A stretch of 40,764 nt of DNA, taken from assembly GCA_001791115.1 (NCBI GenBank), contig MGDZ01000004.1:1-40764 (forward strand), read 5' to 3'. The translations under genes and the position numbers were made by a program. How positions within the stretch are numbered: the first letter of the stretch is position 1; each line of letters begins with the position of its first letter. A model generated the notes under the pieces. That model saw only the letters and a list, made by a program, of their open reading frames with translations, was not told where the DNA came from and did no database searches. The stretch is from Candidatus Uhrbacteria bacterium RIFCSPHIGHO2_02_FULL_57_19 (GTDB lineage: Bacteria; Patescibacteriota; Patescibacteriia; 2-12-FULL-57-11). Shown here piece by piece: positions 4,821-40,686 of this stretch.

Positions 4821-5243
4821 ATGGCCGCCTTTTTGGACAAATTCAGATTCACCCGCAAGCCCTTCCGCCAGCCCAAAGAGAAAGAGGCCGATGTTTCGGA
4901 GACGAAGAAGGCCAAAGAGCCGGCGGCGGAAATCCACCAGCCGGCCTCGGAAGACACCGGCCAGGCCTATCGCGTTCTCCTTCGGCCGCTAGTCACCGAG
5001 AAAGGCGCGCGGCTGGGAGAGTCAGGTCAGTATGTCTTCATCGTGGCCAGGGATGCCACCCGCATTGCCGTTGCCCGGGCAGTGGAGAAGGTCTATGGTG
5101 TTCGTCCGCTCAAAGTGAATATCGCCCGGGTCAGGGGCAAACAGATTCGTTTCGGACGGACGCGAGGACGCCAAAAGGACTGGAAAAAGGCTCTGGTGAT
5201 CCTACCGCCTGGCAAAAAAATTCGTGTTTACGAAGGAGTGTAA
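4821..5243 (+). CDS. rplW: 50S ribosomal protein L23 with a ~45-aa N-terminal extension
   Basis: YRVLLRPLVTEKGARL...KVNIARVRGK core. No alternative start codon lies before the core. Confidence 0.9.
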   Translation: MAAFLDKFRFTRKPFRQPKEKEADVSETKKAKEPAAEIHQPASEDTGQAYRVLLRPLVTEKGARLGESGQYVFIVARDATRIAVARAVEKVYGVRPLKVNIARVRGKQIRFGRTRGRQKDWKKALVILPPGKKIRVYEGV

Positions 5244-5252
5244 ATTCCAATC

Positions 5253-6083
5253 ATGCCTGTCAAACATTACAAACCTACCACTCCTGGTCGCCGGCTGGCC
5301 ACCGTCGACGCTTTTGCCGACGTTACCAAGCACAAACCGGAAAAATCGCTCCTGCTTCCTCCCAAGCGCCGCGGCGGCCGGAACTTCCAGGGAAAGATTA
5401 CTGTGCGCCACCGCGGAGGCGGGGCGCGGCGCTACATCCGCATTGTCGATTTCCGGCAGGACCGCTATGATGCGCCGGCCAAAGTGCTGGCCATCGAGTA
5501 CGATCCGGGCCGCGGGGCGAGGATCGCCCTCATCCAATATCAGGATGGAGAGAAGCGCTATATCGTCGCCCCTCTTAATCTTGAGGTGGGCGGAGAGGTG
5601 CGCTCCTCACGGCAGGCTGTCGAGATCAAACCTGGAAACCGCATGCCCTTGGAGTTTATTCCCGTGGGCTTGATCGTCCACAACGTGGAACTTAGGCCCG
5701 GCCAGGGAGGAGTGCTGGTTCGCGGCGCCGGTCTGGGGGCGCAGATCATGGCTGTTGAAGGCGACTACGCCCAGATCAAGCTTCCCTCTGGTGAGATTCG
5801 GATGGTTCCCAAAACCGCGGCCGCCACGGTGGGTATCGTCGGAAATCCGGATCATCGGCTGGTTCGCTACGGAAAAGCCGGCCGCATCAGACATCTGGGC
5901 ATTCGTCCGTCAGTCAGGGGCAAGGCGATGAATCCGGTCGACCATCCGCATGGCGGCGGCGAGGGCAAGCATCCCATCGGCCTGAAGCATCCCAAGACTC
6001 CCTGGGGCAAGCCGGCGCTGGGAGTGAAGACGCGCAAACGGACCAAGTGGTCAAACGTGCTTATTGTCAAACGCCGGAAATAA
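5253..6083 (+). CDS. rplB: 50S ribosomal protein L2
   Basis: 276 aa. [16 protein letters not shown] and [14 protein letters not shown] motifs. Confidence 0.98.
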
Positions 6084-6086
6084 GAT

Positions 6087-6431
6087 ATGTCTCGCAGTCT
6101 AAAAAAAGGACCATACGTTGATCAAAAGCTTCTGGCCAAGATTATGCGTCTCCGTCCAGGGGACAAAATGGTGATCAAAACCTGGGCGCGCGCTTCGACT
6201 ATCACTCCGGAGATGGTCGGGTTCACCGTCGGCGTGCATAACGGCAAGACGCATGTTCCGGTTTTGATCGTGGAAAATATGGTCGGTCACAAGCTGGGCG
6301 AGTTCTCTCTCTCCAAAAAGTTCATCCGCCACGGAGGCAAGATGCAGAAAGAAATCGAGGCCAAAGCCGCCCCGCTTAGCGGGGCAGCCGCGCCCGCCCC
6401 GCTAAGCGGGGCTCCGGCAGCCAAGAAATAA
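6087..6431 (+). CDS. rpsS: 30S ribosomal protein S19 with a ~20-aa repeat-encoded C-terminal tail
   Basis: [11 protein letters not shown]...GHKLGEF core. The tail [21 protein letters not shown] is encoded by two palindromic repeats. Confidence 0.95.
6370..6411. repeat. Two hairpin-forming palindromes, CCCCGCTTAGCGGGG and CCCCGCTAAGCGGGG, inside the rpsS 3' end
   Basis: Located at 6370-6384 and 6397-6411, which are reverse complements of each other with a 27-nt period. The same CCCGCTTAGCGGG core forms the terminator at 26516-26546. Confidence 0.85.
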
Positions 6432-6887: not shown

Positions 6888-7538
6888 ATGGGAAATAAAG
6901 TACATCCGACAAGTTTCCGCCTCGGCACGACCGCCACCTGGCAATCGCGCTGGTTTTCCGTACGCGAGTATCCCAAGTTTCTCCGCCAGGACGTGGAGGT
7001 CAGGGCGTTTCTTCGCGATCTTCTGCGGGAGGCGGCCGTCGATCGCATCGATATCGAGCGTTCGGCCAACCAGATGACCATCATCATCGCTTCGGCCAAA
7101 CCGGGGTTCATTATCGGTCGGGCCGGCGCCGGCGCCGAGGAGATCAAAGAAAAAATCCGTCAGAAATTTTTCCGCGGCCAGAAAGTATCGCTGGGAGTGA
7201 ACATCGTCGAGGTGCCCAGGCCGTCTCTCTCTTCGTCCATCGTCATGCAACAGATAGTTTCCGATCTGGAGAAACGAATGCCCTTTCGCCGGGTTTTGAA
7301 GATGACCGTTGACCGCGTTTCCAAGGCCGGTGCCAGAGGAGTAAGGGTCGAAGTCGCCGGCCGGCTGAACGGAGCGGAGATCGCCCGAACGGAAAAGCTG
7401 GCTTGGGGCAGCGTGCCCTTGCACAATCTCAGGGCGGATATTAATTATGCTCAGGGATTCGCCAGGACCATCTACGGAACCATCGGAGTCAAGGTCTGGA
7501 TCTATCGGGGGGAAGTGTTTGAGAAGGAAAAAGAGTAG
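6888..7538 (+). CDS. rpsC: 30S ribosomal protein S3
   Basis: MGNKVHPTSFRLG start at ATG-6888, 1 nt after the rplV stop. The upstream part of ORF 6666-7538 overlaps rplV out of frame. Confidence 0.96.
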   Translation: MGNKVHPTSFRLGTTATWQSRWFSVREYPKFLRQDVEVRAFLRDLLREAAVDRIDIERSANQMTIIIASAKPGFIIGRAGAGAEEIKEKIRQKFFRGQKVSLGVNIVEVPRPSLSSSIVMQQIVSDLEKRMPFRRVLKMTVDRVSKAGARGVRVEVAGRLNGAEIARTEKLAWGSVPLHNLRADINYAQGFARTIYGTIGVKVWIYRGEVFEKEKE

Positions 7539-7544
7539 CGGTTT

Positions 7545-7961
7545 ATGTTCATCCCCAAGAAAGTCAAATATCGGAAACTCCACAAAGGCCGCTCGCGCGG
7601 GGAGCATGCTGCGACGCGAAAAATCTCTCTGGCTTTCGGAAGCCGCGGTTTGAAAACATTGGAATTCGGCTGGATTACCTCGCGCCAGCTCGAAGCCGCC
7701 CGGCGGGCCATGACCCGTTCGATCAAGCGGGGAGGTAAGGTCTGGATCAGAGTATTTCCGGACAAGTCAGTGACCATCAAGGGTTCCGAGGTTCCCATGG
7801 GCGGCGGCAAGGGCGCGGTTGACCATTACGTGGCGGTAGTGCGTCCAGGAACGGTCATCTTGGAGATTGACGGCACCACTGACGAGGTGGCCGATGAAGC
7901 CTTGCGGCTGGCCGCCTACAAACTTCCGGTAAGGACTAGGATAATCGGGAAAAACGGCTGA
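7545..7961 (+). CDS. rplP: 50S ribosomal protein L16
   Basis: MFIPKKVKYRKLHKGR start; 138 aa. Confidence 0.97.
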   Translation: MFIPKKVKYRKLHKGRSRGEHAATRKISLAFGSRGLKTLEFGWITSRQLEAARRAMTRSIKRGGKVWIRVFPDKSVTIKGSEVPMGGGKGAVDHYVAVVRPGTVILEIDGTTDEVADEALRLAAYKLPVRTRIIGKNG

Positions 7962-7989: not shown

Positions 7990-8211
7990 ATGAAAGAATG
8001 GAAAGAAATCCAAAACAAGGAAATTCCGGAGCTGGTCCGGGAGATGGCCGCTTCCCGCGAGAAGTTGCGCGATCTGCGTTTTCGCATTTCCCAAGGACAG
8101 CACAAGGATGTTCGCGAAGTCCGTGAGATCCGCGTGCGCATCGCCCGTTTGGCGACTCTCGTCTCCAAGCGGAGCGCGGCGTCGTCGACAGCGCGCGAAA
8201 CACAGATATGA
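7990..8211 (+). CDS. rpmC: 50S ribosomal protein L29
   Basis: 73 aa. KLRDLRFRISQGQ helix pattern and operon position. Confidence 0.9.
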   Translation: MKEWKEIQNKEIPELVREMAASREKLRDLRFRISQGQHKDVREVREIRVRIARLATLVSKRSAASSTARETQI

Positions 8212-22492: not shown

Positions 22493-23068
22493 ATGTCTGT
22501 TTCAAAGAAGGTTCTCGCCTATCTTGATGGAAAGAAAGTGAAGTATGAAGTGGTTCCGCATCGGAAGGTGTTTACCGCCTACGATCTGGCGCAAACCCTG
22601 GGCGAGGAGCTGAATAAAATCGCCAAAACACTCTTGGTCAAGGTTGAGCTGCCAGAGCTTAAAAAAAGTGGTAAGTACTATGTCGTCGCGGTGCCGGCCT
22701 CCTACCGCGTTGATCCGGCGAAGATCAAGAAACAGCTCAAGGCGGCGCGAGTGGAGCTCGCTCCGGAACGGGTGTTCAAGCAGCTGGGAATCGAACCCGG
22801 CGCGCTTTCGCCGTTTGCGGGCATGCATCAATTGGAGCTCCTGCTGGATAAGACTCTTCTGCGCACCAAGAAAGCGATCGTCCGCGCGGGGAGTCTCACC
22901 GAATCCTTGCGTGTCGCAGTGAAGGATTTGCACAAAATGGAGAAGGCCAAGGTTGGAGTTTTCGGAGGCAAAGTCGCCGGGCTGAAGTTGCAGGTGAAGG
23001 TTCAAAAAGCGAAGAGGAAGAGGGGGAGTGGAAAGGGTAAGAAAAAGGGAAGAAAAGGGAAGCGGTAA
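22493..23068 (+). CDS. YbaK/EbsC-type aminoacyl-tRNA deacylase domain protein with a Lys-rich tail
   Basis: VLAYLDGKKVKYEVVPH...IAKTLLVKV...GALSPFAG pattern. Tail KAKRKRGSGKGKKKGRKGKR. Confidence 0.65.
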   Translation: MSVSKKVLAYLDGKKVKYEVVPHRKVFTAYDLAQTLGEELNKIAKTLLVKVELPELKKSGKYYVVAVPASYRVDPAKIKKQLKAARVELAPERVFKQLGIEPGALSPFAGMHQLELLLDKTLLRTKKAIVRAGSLTESLRVAVKDLHKMEKAKVGVFGGKVAGLKLQVKVQKAKRKRGSGKGKKKGRKGKR

Positions 23069-27083: not shown

Positions 27084-27145
27084 TCCGCGCAACCCGAGGC
27101 ACAAGTATTATCTATCTTCTACCCCAAGTTGCGGGGGCGAGATTT
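27084..27145. repeat. Direct repeat copy A (62 nt, 1 mismatch) of the tRNA-fMet 3' end plus flank
   Basis: Positions 27084-27139 are identical to 27237-27292. After one mismatch, GATTT matches again. The offset is 153 bp. Confidence 0.9.
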
Positions 27146-27188
27146 CTCTCGCTCCGACTCGAGCCTGGGCGCTGCGCACCACCCCGCC
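27129..27188 (-). pseudogene. About 60-nt relic of the initiator tRNA (acceptor stem and degenerate T arm retained, anticodon arm lost)
   Basis: The minus strand reads GGCGGGG-TG-GTGCGCAGCGCCCAGGCTCGAGTCGGA-GCGAG-AGAAAT-CTCGC-CCCCGCA-A. It aligns with the intact gene at both ends only. Confidence 0.6.
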
Positions 27189-27236
27189 ACCGGCGGGGTT
27201 CTCGCGCCCTTCAAATCCCGTGTTTCGCAACAACGT

Positions 27237-27298
27237 TCCGCGCAACCCGAGGCACAAGTATTATCTATCTTCTACCCCAAGTTGCGGGGGCGGGATTT
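27237..27298. repeat. Direct repeat copy B (overlaps the intact tRNA-fMet 3' end)
   Basis: See copy A. Confidence 0.9.
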
Positions 27299-27355
27299 GA
27301 ACCCGCGACCTCCGGGTTATGGGCCCGGCGAGCTGCCAGACTGCTCTACCCCGCT
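27282..27355 (-). tRNA. Initiator-type tRNA-Met (anticodon CAT), CCA not encoded
   Basis: AGCGGGG-T-A-GAGC-AGTCTGGCA-GCTC-G-CCGGG-CCCATAA-CCCGG-AGGTC-GCGGG-TTCAAAT-CCCGC-CCCCGCA-A. Three G-C pairs close the anticodon stem. Position 1-72 is an A x A mismatch. Confidence 0.85.
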
Positions 27356-27372
27356 ATATCAATCCTCGAATA

Positions 27373-27451
27373 TGCCGCCGGTCGGGGTCGAACCGACACG
27401 GGGTTGCCCCCATCCCGCCAAAGGCGGGACGTGCCCGCCTGCCAACGCCTA
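27373..27451 (-). pseudogene. 3' portion of a class-II tRNA (degenerate D/anticodon region, variable arm, T arm, acceptor 3' strand); no local 5' acceptor strand
   Basis: The minus strand ends ...TCCCG-CCTTTGG-CGGGA-T-GGGG-GCAA-CCCC-GT-GTCGG-TTCGACC-CCGAC-CGGCGGC-A. It starts immediately after the tRNA-Leu discriminator base. Confidence 0.6.
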
Positions 27452-27534
27452 TGCCGGAGGAGGGGATCGAACCCTCATGCCTTATGGGCACACGATTTTG
27501 AGTCGTGCGCGTCTGCCAATTCCGCCACTCCGGC
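27452..27534 (-). tRNA. tRNA-Leu (anticodon CAA), class II, CCA not encoded
   Basis: GCCGGAG-TG-GCGG-AATTGGCAGA-CGC-G-CACGA-CTCAAAA-TCGTG-TGCCCATAAGGCAT-GAGGG-TTCGATC-CCCTC-CTCCGGC-A. Confidence 0.92.
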
Positions 27535-27576
27535 GTAGGCATAGGCGGGCAGGTCTGCTAATTCCACCACGGCGGC
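27535..27576 (-). pseudogene. 5' half of a class-II tRNA whose acceptor strand matches the 3' piece at 27373-27451
   Basis: GCCGCCG-TG-GTGG-AATTAGCAGA-CCTGCCCGCCTATGCCTAC. GCCGCCG is the exact complement of CGGCGGC at 27374-27380. The D arm is nearly identical to that of tRNA-Leu. Confidence 0.6.
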
Positions 27577-27650
27577 GTGCGGGAATAGGATACTCGGCTC
27601 GCTGGTTATTGTCAAACCAGTTCATCTGAGTTATTATCCCGTCGTTGTGA

Positions 27651-27724
27651 GGCGGGGTAGCTCAGTTGGTTAGAGCGAGGGACTCATAAGCCCTAGGTCG
27701 CCGGTTCGATCCCGGCCCCCGCTA
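27651..27724 (+). tRNA. tRNA with anticodon CAT (elongator Met or lysidine-dependent Ile2), CCA not encoded
   Basis: GGCGGGG-T-A-GCTC-AGTTGGTTA-GAGC-G-AGGGA-CTCATAA-GCCCT-AGGTC-GCCGG-TTCGATC-CCGGC-CCCCGCT-A. Confidence 0.88.
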
Positions 27725-27735
27725 TTTGAGAATAC
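27708..27735. repeat. 28-nt direct repeat R1 (T-loop to 3' end of tRNA-CAT plus 11 nt of flank)
   Basis: GATCCCGGCCCCCGCTATTTGAGAATAC, identical to 27846-27873. Confidence 0.92.
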
Positions 27736-27740
27736 ACAAG

Positions 27741-27862
27741 TAGCGGGACGGGATCGAACAGGGAAGGGTCGGAAACCGTGAGGTTTCCGTGGAGGAAGTA
27801 TTGAAACCGAGTGGTTTCAAAAGCCCCGCCCTGCGGGGCGTGTGAGATCCCGGCCCCCGCTA
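27741..27862 (+). ncRNA. Candidate structured RNA: a 13-bp interrupted closing helix plus three perfect hairpins (cloverleaf topology)
   Basis: TAGCGGG/CCCGCTA and GGGATC/GATCCC close the structure. The hairpins are CGGAAACC-GTGA-GGTTTCCG (27770-27789), TTGAAACC-GAGT-GGTTTCAA (27801-27820) and GCCCCGC-CCT-GCGGGGC (27823-27839). Its 3' strand is repeat R2. Confidence 0.35.
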
Positions 27863-27873
27863 TTTGAGAATAC
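27846..27873. repeat. 28-nt direct repeat R2
   Basis: Identical to 27708-27735; offset 138 bp. Confidence 0.92.
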
Positions 27874-27900
27874 CGATACCATCCAAGTTTTATTAAATTG

Positions 27901-28878
27901 ATGGGACCGACGCTTAATCTTTACTACGACATCCAGATTCTGATGCTCCTGGTGGTTTTCGCCGCCGGGGTGTTTTTTGTCGAACGGGATCGAAGGCACC
28001 GGCGCGGTTCCGTCGCCCATCGGTTTCAGGCGCTGTCCAAGACGGCGGCGGTTCTTTGCACGCTGGGTTTCATTTTTGTTGTTTACGGCAGTTTCATCGA
28101 GCCGCGCATCATCCGGGTGGTCCGAGCGGAGGTGGGACTAACGGGTCGGCGGCCGCTCTCCGCGCCCGTGCGCATCGCGCTTATCTCCGATAGTCACCTC
28201 GGCCCTTTCAAACGGGACAGGTTCATGCGCCGAGTGGCGGCGGAACTCATCCGGATCAAGCCGGACATCGTCGTGCTCGCCGGGGATCTGGTCGAGGATG
28301 CGACACGGACCGGTGAAGCCCGCTATCTGCTGCCGCTGGCCGAAGTCGCGCGCCGAATACCCGTCTTTGTCGCCCTGGGGAATCACGACTCTGGACTGGG
28401 GGATGAACTGGATTACTTGCCTCTGGACGAGCACGAGGCCGAAGTGGCTGGCGCCCTCGGAGAGGCCGGCGCCGTGGTGCTAAAAAATGAGCATCAGGTT
28501 ATTGAGGTAGGTGGTGTCCGGGTTCTCATAGCCGGTCTGGCCGACATCCGCAGCGGGAAAACCGACCCGGGCGCCGCTCTCTCTGGTGCCCCGCCGGATA
28601 TCCCGCGGATAGTCATCGCCCACAACCCCGACGTGGTGCGGCTTCTTGATTCCAGAGAGGTCGATTTGCTCCTCGCCGGCCACACCCACGGCGGCCAGTT
28701 TCGTTTGCCGGGCATTGGTTCTCTGGTCCGCATTCCCACTACCTTGGGTCAAGACGTCGACCGCGGACTTTTCCGGATCGGGGGCATACCTCTTTACATC
28801 ACCAGCGGCATCGGGGAGTCCGGCGCCCGTGCCCGCCTTTTCATTCCCCCGGAAATTGCGCTCATCACGGTGAGGTAG
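27901..28878 (+). CDS. Membrane-anchored metallophosphoesterase (calcineurin-like, YaeI type)
   Basis: N-terminal TM segments. ISDSHLG, GDLVED, GNHD and AGHTHGGQ motifs. Confidence 0.88.
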   Translation: MGPTLNLYYDIQILMLLVVFAAGVFFVERDRRHRRGSVAHRFQALSKTAAVLCTLGFIFVVYGSFIEPRIIRVVRAEVGLTGRRPLSAPVRIALISDSHLGPFKRDRFMRRVAAELIRIKPDIVVLAGDLVEDATRTGEARYLLPLAEVARRIPVFVALGNHDSGLGDELDYLPLDEHEAEVAGALGEAGAVVLKNEHQVIEVGGVRVLIAGLADIRSGKTDPGAALSGAPPDIPRIVIAHNPDVVRLLDSREVDLLLAGHTHGGQFRLPGIGSLVRIPTTLGQDVDRGLFRIGGIPLYITSGIGESGARARLFIPPEIALITVR

Positions 28879-40609: not shown

Positions 40610-40686
40610 TGGTGGACGCACCTGGATTCGAACCAGGGACCTCTGTCGTGTGAGGACAGCGCTCTAACCAGCTGAGCTATACGTCC
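40610..40686 (-). tRNA. tRNA-Val (anticodon CAC), CCA encoded
   Basis: GGACGTA-TA-GCTC-AGCTGGTTA-GAGC-G-CTGTC-CTCACAC-GACAG-AGGTC-CCTGG-TTCGAAT-CCAGG-TGCGTCC-A-CCA. Confidence 0.92.

Follow-up and report, generated by a model that had tools for sequence, protein, structure and literature searches.

A tRNA-tail duplication module behind tRNA-Met(CAT) in a Candidatus Uhrbacteria genome

Transfer RNA genes are classic landing sites for mobile DNA, and the known outcomes are either large islands bounded by tRNA 3' repeats or introns. The part of the gene from the T loop to the tRNA 3' end is the classic sublocation used by tRNA-targeting integrases. Structured RNA beside tRNA genes is also familiar: in Escherichia coli, the rtT repeat units each end in a copy of the 3' terminal nucleotides of a tRNA, and the leader that runs from metY to rimP-nusA-infB is processed by RNase III. 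The tyrT distal repeats of E. coli and their rtT RNA (rttR) go back to Bosl & Kersten 1991, as cited in PMC3318445. The present analysis concerns a 138-bp block, called module A (27736–27873), which lies 3' of the tRNA-Met(CAT) gene of a Candidatus Uhrbacteria genome (RIFCSPHIGHO2_02_FULL_57_19), an uncultured groundwater bacterium of the Candidate Phyla Radiation (CPR, or Patescibacteria). The whole 40.8-kb stretch of contig MGDZ01000004.1 that contains it is referred to as the window, and coordinates are positions in it unless a comparison locus is named.

Module A is a tRNA-tail duplication module and not a tRNA, and it is probably not a free-standing gene. It begins with an inverted, antisense copy of the 3' part of the tRNA and ends in a perfect direct copy. 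This add-on most likely records how tRNA genes in the lineage survive DNA insertions, although it may have a role as RNA. Similar blocks stand behind the two neighbouring tRNAs, module B behind the initiator tRNA and module C behind tRNA-Leu. The comparison loci, 82 in total, were fetched and labelled with L-numbers (L002, L036, L072 and so on).

Anatomy and fold of module A

The last 17 nucleotides (nt) of the tRNA and 11 nt of its trailer recur as a perfect 28-mer, GATCCCGGCCCCCGCTATTTGAGAATAC, at the end of the block, with a start-to-start distance of 138 nt and 110 nt between the copies (Table 1). An earlier note on this DNA had described this repeat, and its coordinates were exact. Copy 1 starts at tRNA nt 57, the fourth base of the T loop, and the 138-nt unit ends in tRNA nt 57–73, after which a new unit begins and runs for 11 nt. 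The chance expectation of an exact 28-nt repeat in 40.8 kb is about 1e-8 (an arithmetic estimate), none of 100 shuffles matched the two-copy pattern, and the window has no third copy even at three mismatches. CGATACC stands directly 3' of copy 2, with the ATG of a metallophosphoesterase gene 27 nt later; without the 138 bp, the element-free junction would run from the tRNA through GCTATTTGAGAATAC straight into CGATACC.

The sequence between the copies had been described as unlike the tRNA. This is correct for the remaining 85 nt of the interior, with which neither orientation of the tRNA aligns significantly (z = 0.6 and -0.6), but not for the first 20 nt, which are the inverted copy. This antisense arm, TAGCGGG-ACGGGATCGAAC, aligns locally with the reverse-complemented tRNA 3' end, TAGCGGGGGCCGGGATCGAAC, at z = 4.3, a value reached by 2 of 500 shuffles. 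The P1 5' strand of the arm (TAGCGGG) complements tRNA nt 67–73, and the P2 5' strand (CGGGATCGAAC) complements nt 53–63. The arm complements the real T loop (GTTCGATCCCG in the tRNA) better than it complements the region before copy 2 (GTGAGATCCCG).

Folded as RNA, the block reaches -70.2 kcal/mol (z = -7.45), and none of 200 shuffles was as good. An interrupted closing helix, in which CAAGUAGCGGG pairs with CCCGCUAUUUG and CGGGAUC with GAUCCCG, encloses three hairpins with loops of 4, 4 and 3 nt. The structural details listed in the earlier note were all correct in this computed fold: the start of the spacer pairs with the second repeat copy, the three hairpins are perfect (8, 8 and 7 bp, with loops GUGA, GAGU and CCU), and the two 8-bp hairpins have the common core GAAACC-N4-GGTTTC, which occurs without mismatch only there. 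The cloverleaf topology stood in so far as there is a closing stem with three hairpins, but the likeness is superficial – the "cloverleaf" is the antisense arm paired with repeat copy 2. The closing helix is a plain duplex of the copied 3' strand and the antisense arm, one register shifted and with the discriminator included. Its geometry is not that of an acceptor and T arm, and the proposed mimicry of an acceptor end was not upheld. No 7-nt anticodon loop or T loop is present, as had been noted, and ARAGORN and the Rfam tRNA model (RF00005) call only 27651–27724 and not 27741–27862, even at E <= 10.

The minus strand of the block folds at -63.7 kcal/mol (z = -6.6), so that the plus strand is better by 6.5 kcal/mol. 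Because the minus strand folds almost equally well, energy alone cannot tell an RNA structure from a DNA palindrome. On the minus strand, hairpin 3 is followed by TTTTG and is terminator-like.

For the unprocessed tRNA together with module A, ViennaRNA predicts that the arm traps the tRNA 3' strand, at -115.7 kcal/mol as against -101.3 kcal/mol for the cloverleaf plus module. In this predicted hybrid fold, the tRNA 5' strand has copy 2 as its partner in the acceptor stem. The precursor of module B gives a similar prediction, with a trapped fold of -118.4 vs -111.3 kcal/mol. Given this predicted trapping, the arm needs a competitor.

The three tRNA genes that bear modules – Met (27651–27724), initiator Met (27281–27355) and Leu (27452–27534) – form a cluster with divergent sigma-70-like promoters at 27587–27637. 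None of the three has an encoded CCA or a terminator, in contrast to the tRNA-Val at the end of the window (40610–40686), which has an encoded CCA and an ordinary terminator. No terminator was found on the plus strand between tRNA-Met and the metallophosphoesterase open reading frame (ORF).

Table 1. Features of the tRNA cluster and its modules, in window coordinates
Feature	Position	Strand	Remarks
tRNA-Met(CAT), without encoded CCA	27651–27724	+	ARAGORN; Rfam tRNA 66.5 bits
Direct repeat copy 1, TTTGAGAATAC (tRNA nt 57–73 and 11 nt of trailer)	27708–27735	+	
Antisense arm, degenerate inverted copy of tRNA 3' part	27741–27760	+	able to pair with either copy
Hairpin 1, CGGAAACC-GTGA-GGTTTCCG	27770–27789	+	8 perfect pairs, GNRA loop
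Hairpin 2, TTGAAACC-GAGT-GGTTTCAA	27801–27820	+	8 perfect pairs
Hairpin 3, GCCCCGC-CCT-GCGGGGC	27823–27839	+	7 perfect pairs
Direct repeat copy 2, 3' strand of closing helix	27846–27873	+	
Sigma-70-like promoter upstream of tRNA-Met, TTGTCA-17-TATTAT	27609–27637	+	10/12 consensus matches; consensus match only
Divergent promoter-like site	27615 to 27587	-	paired with tRNA-Met promoter
Module B, behind initiator-type tRNA-Met (27281–27355, -)	27084–27298	-	
Module C, behind tRNA-Leu (27452–27534, -)	27371–27449	-	degenerate partial tRNA copy and hairpins

The Rfam search proposed in the earlier note was run and gave tRNAs only, both at gathering thresholds and at E <= 10, so there is no family for module A. 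Weak matches to YrlA, microRNA and permuted transfer-messenger RNA families were far below threshold and located on the tRNAs, and the RtT model had no match in 27150–27950 at E <= 10. The search for homologues of the element, also proposed there, came out empty: the interior had no match in the window, the 82 loci, or the viral, phage and plasmid collections. Neither the interior nor the hairpin core has a second copy in the 40.8 kb or in related loci. Scans of viral contigs with the hairpin pair, the repeat plus flank, the arm and two module B cores returned one unrelated 33-nt tandem repeat only, and BLAST against the phage and plasmid collections returned no match. The genome-contig and metagenome scans covered exact patterns only; that of genome contigs with the tRNA 3' end returned mostly Alphaproteobacteria, with only L036 useful, and the two-copy scan of metagenomes returned neither the window species nor a homologue of the interior. 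The interior is too short for an ORF. No integrase, transposase, phage or endonuclease genes were found in the window, where all scanned long ORFs are housekeeping genes, and the GIY-YIG proteins of relatives (described below) had no match in it by tblastn.

The genes around the cluster encode a phospholipase-C-like protein, a GT4 protein, a PBP5-like peptidase, the metallophosphoesterase, ParA, ParB and RelA. The metallophosphoesterase has a 100% identical counterpart in Uhrbacteria bacterium RIFCSPHIGHO2_12_FULL_57_11, and the further homologues looked up are mostly in non-syntenic contexts. At some distance from the cluster, the C-terminal tail of ribosomal protein S19 (6360–6420) has a tandem APLSGA repeat that derives from two CCCCGCT(T/A)AGCGGGG palindromes, and an isolated T-loop-like sequence, GGTTCGATTCC, lies at 22787–22797 (minus strand), away from the called tRNAs.

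Sibling modules, relatives and metagenomes

Module B has the same parts as module A. A trailer hairpin leads into an antisense arm (GTTGCG...CGGGATTTGAA); internal hairpins come next and a tRNA copy after them. The arm is complementary to the acceptor end and T loop of the initiator tRNA and, as in module A, fits the genuine T loop, TTC included, better than it fits copy 2. The tRNA copy at 27128–27145 corresponds to tRNA nt 57–74 with one mismatch and has the same nt-57 start as in module A. A further 44 nt of the trailer are repeated in the window strain; in L003 and L072, the repeat ends 1 nt past the tRNA. The sequence ACGGGATCGAA, which forms the core of the antisense arm and is the reverse complement of a T loop, occurs exactly for a third time at 27984–27994, inside the metallophosphoesterase coding sequence, where the chance expectation is ca. 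0.02.

There is evidence that module B has been maintained over some evolutionary distance. It is found in L072 (5730–5870) with about 82–85% nucleotide identity to the window version. L072/L073 represent a syntenic Uhrbacteria genome at family-level distance, whose RelA and ParA proteins are 59% and 74% identical to those of the window. Ten base pairs of module B are changed on both sides, seven in the trailer hairpin and three in an inner hairpin (two of the six helices); none of 500 shuffles matched this, and slid controls had 0–3 such changes. The junction sequences are conserved, and the hairpins vary with compensation. The T stem reads CCCAC in L072, and in the window it reads CCCGC in the tRNA and CTCGC in copy 2. 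That copy 2 tracks the lineage-specific T stem points to concerted evolution. Module B may be an undescribed conserved noncoding element, absent in L080, L036, L075 and L002.

Module C is more degenerate. Besides the T-arm-like GTCGG-TTCGACC-CCGAC, it contains an acceptor-like CGGCGGCA. No tRNA is called there, and its score against the tRNA-Sec model, 17.8 bits, is below threshold. Modules A, B and C share a similar hairpin, CCC(C)GC(C)-NNN-(G)GCGGG(G). Model R1, a covariance model trained on module B and run with default filters, matches its own training loci and, at E = 2.7, a hairpin of module C, but nothing else. The leader and trailer of the tRNA-Leu (27434–27553, minus strand) have about 19 nt that are complementary and prolong the acceptor stem, like an rRNA processing stem. 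L072 has a counterpart of the window modules on the 5' side (8090–8190, minus strand): 96 nt upstream of its tRNA-Leu gene lies a copy of the initial 10 nt of that tRNA, GCCGCGGTGG, with two GC-rich hairpins after it.

Three near-identical strains (L003, L004 and L005) carry module A unchanged and are therefore uninformative. Around the initiator tRNA, these strains (99.3–99.7% identical) do diverge, as seen between 27237–27370 of the window and 2108–2470 of L003, 1–360 of L005, and L004. A trailer segment of ca. 35 nt is swapped between strains, the window version being the distal trailer, and L003–L005 have about 60 extra nt upstream of the initiator tRNA. L005 is 85% identical in the initiator stretch, which is at a contig end and may contain errors, and the NCBI assembly (L004) has a run of N around the initiator tRNA.

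The element-free orthologous sites that the earlier note had proposed looking for were found in three relatives: L036, L072 and L075 have orthologous tRNA-Met genes without module A. Those of L072 and L075 have a CCA and a terminator, and in L036 a terminator directly follows the tRNA; several module-free orthologues in relatives encode CCA. The L002 orthologue has a downstream 3' copy of its own, 42 nt identical to the local tRNA, with both unlike the window sequence. This copy starts in the anticodon loop, and a GC hairpin of 22 nt interrupts it. That the copy agrees with the local tRNA, and not across lineages, argues for gene conversion, and with gene conversion the perfect 28-mer of module A is not proof of youth. 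In the window and five CPR relatives, 6 of 16 tRNAs have direct copies of at least 12 nt (12–39 nt) within 400 nt, while for the 36 tRNAs of non-CPR control loci no copy exceeds 10 nt.

The same tRNAs carry endonuclease genes in relatives. In L036 (1123–1541, minus strand), a GIY-YIG ORF (PF01541, E = 2e-15) is located between a duplicated 5' part and the intact initiator tRNA. The duplicated part consists of tRNA nt 1–23, a hairpin insertion and six more tRNA bases (CTCGCC), and the last codons of the ORF run into the intact tRNA. L002, whose GIY-YIG ORFs also match PF01541, has the same arrangement at its initiator tRNA and a second cassette upstream of tRNA-Met, for which about 52 nt of the 5' part of that tRNA are duplicated upstream (5222–5700 and 7133–7602). 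These look like homing cassettes that restore their own target. LAGLIDADG-like ORFs lie directly downstream of the initiator tRNA in L075 (1033–1413, a weak Pfam match) and directly downstream of tRNA-Leu in L080 (1466–2197, 30.3 bits, above cutoff).

Hairpin-rich insertions are also found within the tRNA copies of these loci. L002 has a copy of the initiator tRNA (5802–6046) that is broken by three of them (ca. 70, 56 and 44 nt), with tRNA segments that match the intact neighbouring gene; the arrangement is reminiscent of archaeal multi-intron tRNAs. An insertion of about 56–57 nt at nt 23/24 is common to L002 (5565–5690) and L036 (1461–1517). Both loci keep its frame TCCCGA..TCGAGGATCCTCGA..TCGGGA, and the differences between their inner hairpins are compensatory.

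In metagenomes, the exact-pattern scan for two copies of CCGGCCCCCGCTA 75–135 nt apart returned 25 loci, most of them behind proteobacterial-type initiator tRNAs. A segment of ca. 110 nt is recurrent among them (L050, L051, L052, L060, L061, L062, L066 and L067; for example, 3570–3680 in L051) and lies between the initiator tRNA and ORFs of 151, 499 and 898 amino acids. These sizes suggest rimP, nusA and infB, and the segment would then be the operon leader. It contains a partial 3' tRNA copy (variable loop, T arm, acceptor strand and CCA), and a TAGCG(G) at its 5' end can pair with its end. Covariation in these leaders is weak, and Rfam has no family for them. Since these leaders stand behind proteobacterial-type tRNAs, partial 3' copies in tRNA-proximal leaders are not confined to CPR. 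L057 and L063 are plain tandem tRNA duplications with similar spacing. L049 (1334–1546, minus strand) has a tRNA-Met nearly identical to that of the window, with a CCA and a terminator; 96 nt behind this tRNA is a 43-nt copy that starts in the anticodon loop, followed by a second terminator. With hardly any sequence between its copies, it is a textbook case of an att-like block.

Origin of the block and alternative explanations

The explanation preferred here, tentatively and with rather less than even confidence, is that an insertion or duplication of DNA at the T loop left the tRNA gene intact, and that the resulting block is co-transcribed with the tRNA, with copy 2 sequestering the antisense arm. 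A break or recombination at T-loop position 56/57 of the tRNA gene would have brought in the extra DNA, and one intact gene would have survived because the 3' part and the trailer were duplicated. Gene conversion would then keep the two copies identical. The block would be transcribed with the tRNA from the upstream promoter (27609–27637), as no terminator precedes the metallophosphoesterase-parA-parB genes. In the transcript, copy 2 would sequester the arm in an interrupted helix of about 18 bp and keep it off the tRNA 3' strand, and this double-stranded helix may be an RNase III-type processing site at which the tRNA and the downstream mRNA are cut apart. The proposed event is the mirror image of the GIY-YIG cassettes, which act on the 5' side of the same tRNAs. 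The evidence for this explanation is the second module, in the window and in L072, with the same design and the same nt-57 boundary; the conservation of module B, with compensated pairs and a copy 2 that follows its tRNA; the L002 orthologue with a 3' copy of its own; the module-free orthologues; the endonuclease cassettes that relatives have at these tRNAs; the excess of partial tRNA copies over the non-CPR controls; the promoter and the lack of a terminator before the ORF; and the predicted trapping of the tRNA 3' strand by the arm.

A number of points weigh against it. No endonuclease or recombinase that cuts at nt 56/57 was identified in the loci compared, and the GIY-YIG cassettes of relatives are at other positions (nt 29/30 and ca. 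52/53) and have the duplication on the 5' side. That both modules start at nt 57 could be chance (about 1 in 50) or a functional constraint. R1 does not detect module A, which leaves a common descent of A and B unsupported. The lack of any homologue of the 110-nt interior in the searches above also weighs against the explanation. The covariation of module B comes from four sequences that are effectively two lineages, and the pairs of its closing helix are invariant between them – pairs that never vary give no information on pairing. Transcription, read-through and RNase III cleavage are all inferred.

Two other explanations differ in whether the block has a function. The first, which is unlikely, is that module A is a selected structured RNA made from the pre-tRNA transcript. 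It could be a conformational switch controlling tRNA maturation, with the tRNA's own 3' strand and the decoy copy as alternative partners of the arm, or a released RNA of about 120–140 nt whose 3' segment matches the tRNA gene. The very stable fold, the three perfect hairpins and the GNRA loop on the transcribed strand, which is the better-folding one, all fit this explanation, although the minus strand folds nearly as well. So do the two mutually exclusive folds predicted for both modules, the promoter and the absence of a terminator after the tRNA, and module B, in which unpaired junctions are conserved and peripheral hairpins are variable but compensated, the usual signature of functional RNA. 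The conserved partial 3' tRNA copy in the metagenome initiator-tRNA leaders is an independent precedent. However, module A is missing from L036, L072 and L075 and module B from L080, L036, L075 and L002, so any function must be dispensable and lineage-specific, and module A has neither an interior homologue nor an Rfam match even at E = 10. The structured RNA proposed in the earlier note is thus indirectly supported by the compensatory changes of module B and by a promoter without a terminator, and is weakened by the missing homologues of module A.

The second, improbable as well, is that module A is neutral debris without function, the product of a tandem and/or fold-back duplication (by template switching or unequal crossing-over) followed by decay, with stems that only reflect the self-complementary parts of a tRNA. 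The direct-inverted-direct layout of 17–20 nt is what a double template switch would produce, and hairpin 3 can be read as the acceptor 3' strand fused to the acceptor 5' strand. Plain tandem tRNA duplications occur in metagenomes (L057 and L063), and degenerate partial tRNA copies lie near tRNA-Leu and in L002. Past its first 20 nt, however, the interior is unlike the tRNA, and perfect hairpins and a perfect 28-nt repeat beside a degenerate inverted copy are unlike uniform decay. A useless arm that is predicted to trap the 3' strand of an essential tRNA should also be selected against, and module B is conserved with compensatory changes at family-level distance and has the identical nt-57 boundary.

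It is decidedly unlikely that the 28-nt copies are the attL and attR sites of a tyrosine-integrase element, with the 110 nt as a deletion remnant or as something similar to a CIME (a cis-mobilisable element, which is integrase-less and mobilised in trans). Such an origin predicts an attP junction GTGTGA-GATCCCGGCCCCCGCTATTTGAGAATAC-ACAAGTAGCGGG. It would explain why the identity runs from the T loop through the tRNA 3' end in modules A and B, why L036, L072 and L075 have element-free sites, and why the distribution is patchy and trailer segments of module B are replaced between strains; the 43-nt copy behind the near-identical tRNA of L049 is also of this kind. It does not explain why the identity begins at the fourth T-loop base and not the first, or why it extends 11 nt (44 nt for module B in this strain) into a host-specific, CCA-less trailer. 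Module B is also conserved at a syntenic locus between distant genomes. The window contains no integrase, transposase or phage gene, the handful of relatives fetched have no full-size element between such repeats, and neither the repeat plus flank nor the interior has a viral, phage or plasmid match. The att reading in the earlier note is thus partly supported, by the T-loop start and the element-free orthologues, and is weakened by the lack of an integrase and of a full-size element, by the identity that extends into the trailer and by the syntenic conservation of module B.

A more speculative proposal, to which little weight is given, is that Uhrbacteria, and perhaps other CPR, have an undescribed class of tRNA-trailing RNA that acts as a cis switch gating the maturation of Met tRNAs or as a guide or decoy for the tRNA gene or its transcript. 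The anatomy of this class would be an arm against the T loop and acceptor, a hairpin core, and a 3' segment equal to the tRNA from the base after the T-loop TTC. If it exists, such RNA could, in the guide or decoy role, for example protect the gene against the homing endonucleases found at it in relatives, with module A as a young member and module B as a conserved one.

The remaining candidates were rejected. A miniature inverted-repeat transposable element with terminal inverted repeats and an 11-bp target duplication fails for module B, in which the repeat can end 1 nt past the tRNA; an IS200/IS605-type hairpin element makes no duplication and would need a pre-existing tandem 28-mer; an integron attC would have GTT...AAC in the reverse order; a primer-binding site for mature tRNA does not fit an arm that complements the gene without CCA; a small self-cleaving ribozyme has neither an Rfam match nor core motifs here; a circularly permuted tRNA would need a D or T arm in permuted position, and there is none; and a decayed direct copy of the tRNA 3' half upstream of the 28-mer is 83% identical over 46 nt, an extension that is not significant.

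The window locus and those of its relatives point to a third outcome of insertion at tRNA genes in the streamlined genomes of CPR – small, ORF-less, hairpin-rich blocks, each with a copy of the displaced part of the tRNA – and homing-endonuclease cassettes do likewise on the other side of the tRNA. More widely in Uhrbacteria, partial tRNA copies flank both endonuclease cassettes and hairpin-rich blocks that have no ORF. If these are tolerated scars, they document how essential single-copy tRNA genes have survived attack, and why assemblies break or have gaps at this locus. If instead they are under selection, which the conserved sibling hints at, the modules would be a new kind of cis-acting pre-tRNA element in which a folding inhibitor of the tRNA is combined with its antidote, located between a tRNA gene and parAB. 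In either case, they are a trap for pipelines that annotate tRNAs and att sites.

Module A and known systems

In appearance, module A is like the att repeats of integrated elements. The likeness to attL/attR repeats, including CIME-type remnants and serial repeats such as the ssrA islands of Dehalococcoides (PMC3146451), is in the repeat from the T loop to the tRNA 3' end and its absence in relatives. Unlike them, module A has no integrase in the window, only 110 nt between the copies, identity that extends into the trailer, an antisense arm, and a conserved syntenic sibling.

Free-standing homing-endonuclease genes beside tRNAs, such as segB of phage T4 (PMC2330249), are similar in that an insertion is found with an intact tRNA gene kept. 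The GIY-YIG cassettes of L036 and L002 have, in addition, a partial tRNA copy beside the intact gene and a hairpin-rich insert. Module A differs from these in having no ORF, a duplication on the 3' side, a boundary at nt 56/57, and no sequence similarity to them.

Archaeal non-canonical introns and split or permuted tRNAs (PMC3978253) are a third comparison, as nt 1–56 together with copy 2 amount to a tRNA interrupted by 138 nt. The predicted minimum-energy fold of the module A precursor uses this very pairing of nt 1–56 with copy 2, and the tRNA copies of L002 carry up to three hairpin-rich insertions. Unlike the archaeal genes, however, module A has an uninterrupted gene next to it, and no bulge-helix-bulge motif was identified. 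With the uninterrupted gene present, no splicing is needed. The splicing endonuclease is not known from bacteria.

YrlA (RF02553) and other tRNA mimics also have tRNA-derived sequence in a structured RNA. The best match to YrlA, 21.6 bits against a gathering threshold of 69, is on the initiator tRNA, and module A has no mimic of a T-loop/D-loop.

Two further comparisons are with rtT repeats and with leaders behind tRNAs. Like an rtT repeat, the unit of module A ends in a copy of the tRNA 3' part, in an array of 1.2 copies for module A and about 1.3 for module B. The tyrT precedent named in the earlier note serves well as an analogy, but there is no match to the Rfam RtT model. Module A is unlike rtT in having an antisense arm, and it is found in another phylum and at another tRNA, with its processing inferred. 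The metY leaders, and those of L050–L067, also have a structured segment after a promoter-proximal Met tRNA, with a tRNA 3' copy and no strong terminator. The metagenome leaders of metY type differ from it in having an intact T arm and CCA, no long antisense arm, and other downstream genes. In sum, module A works most like rtT repeats and tRNA-proximal operon leaders, looks like an att scar, and belongs to none of them.

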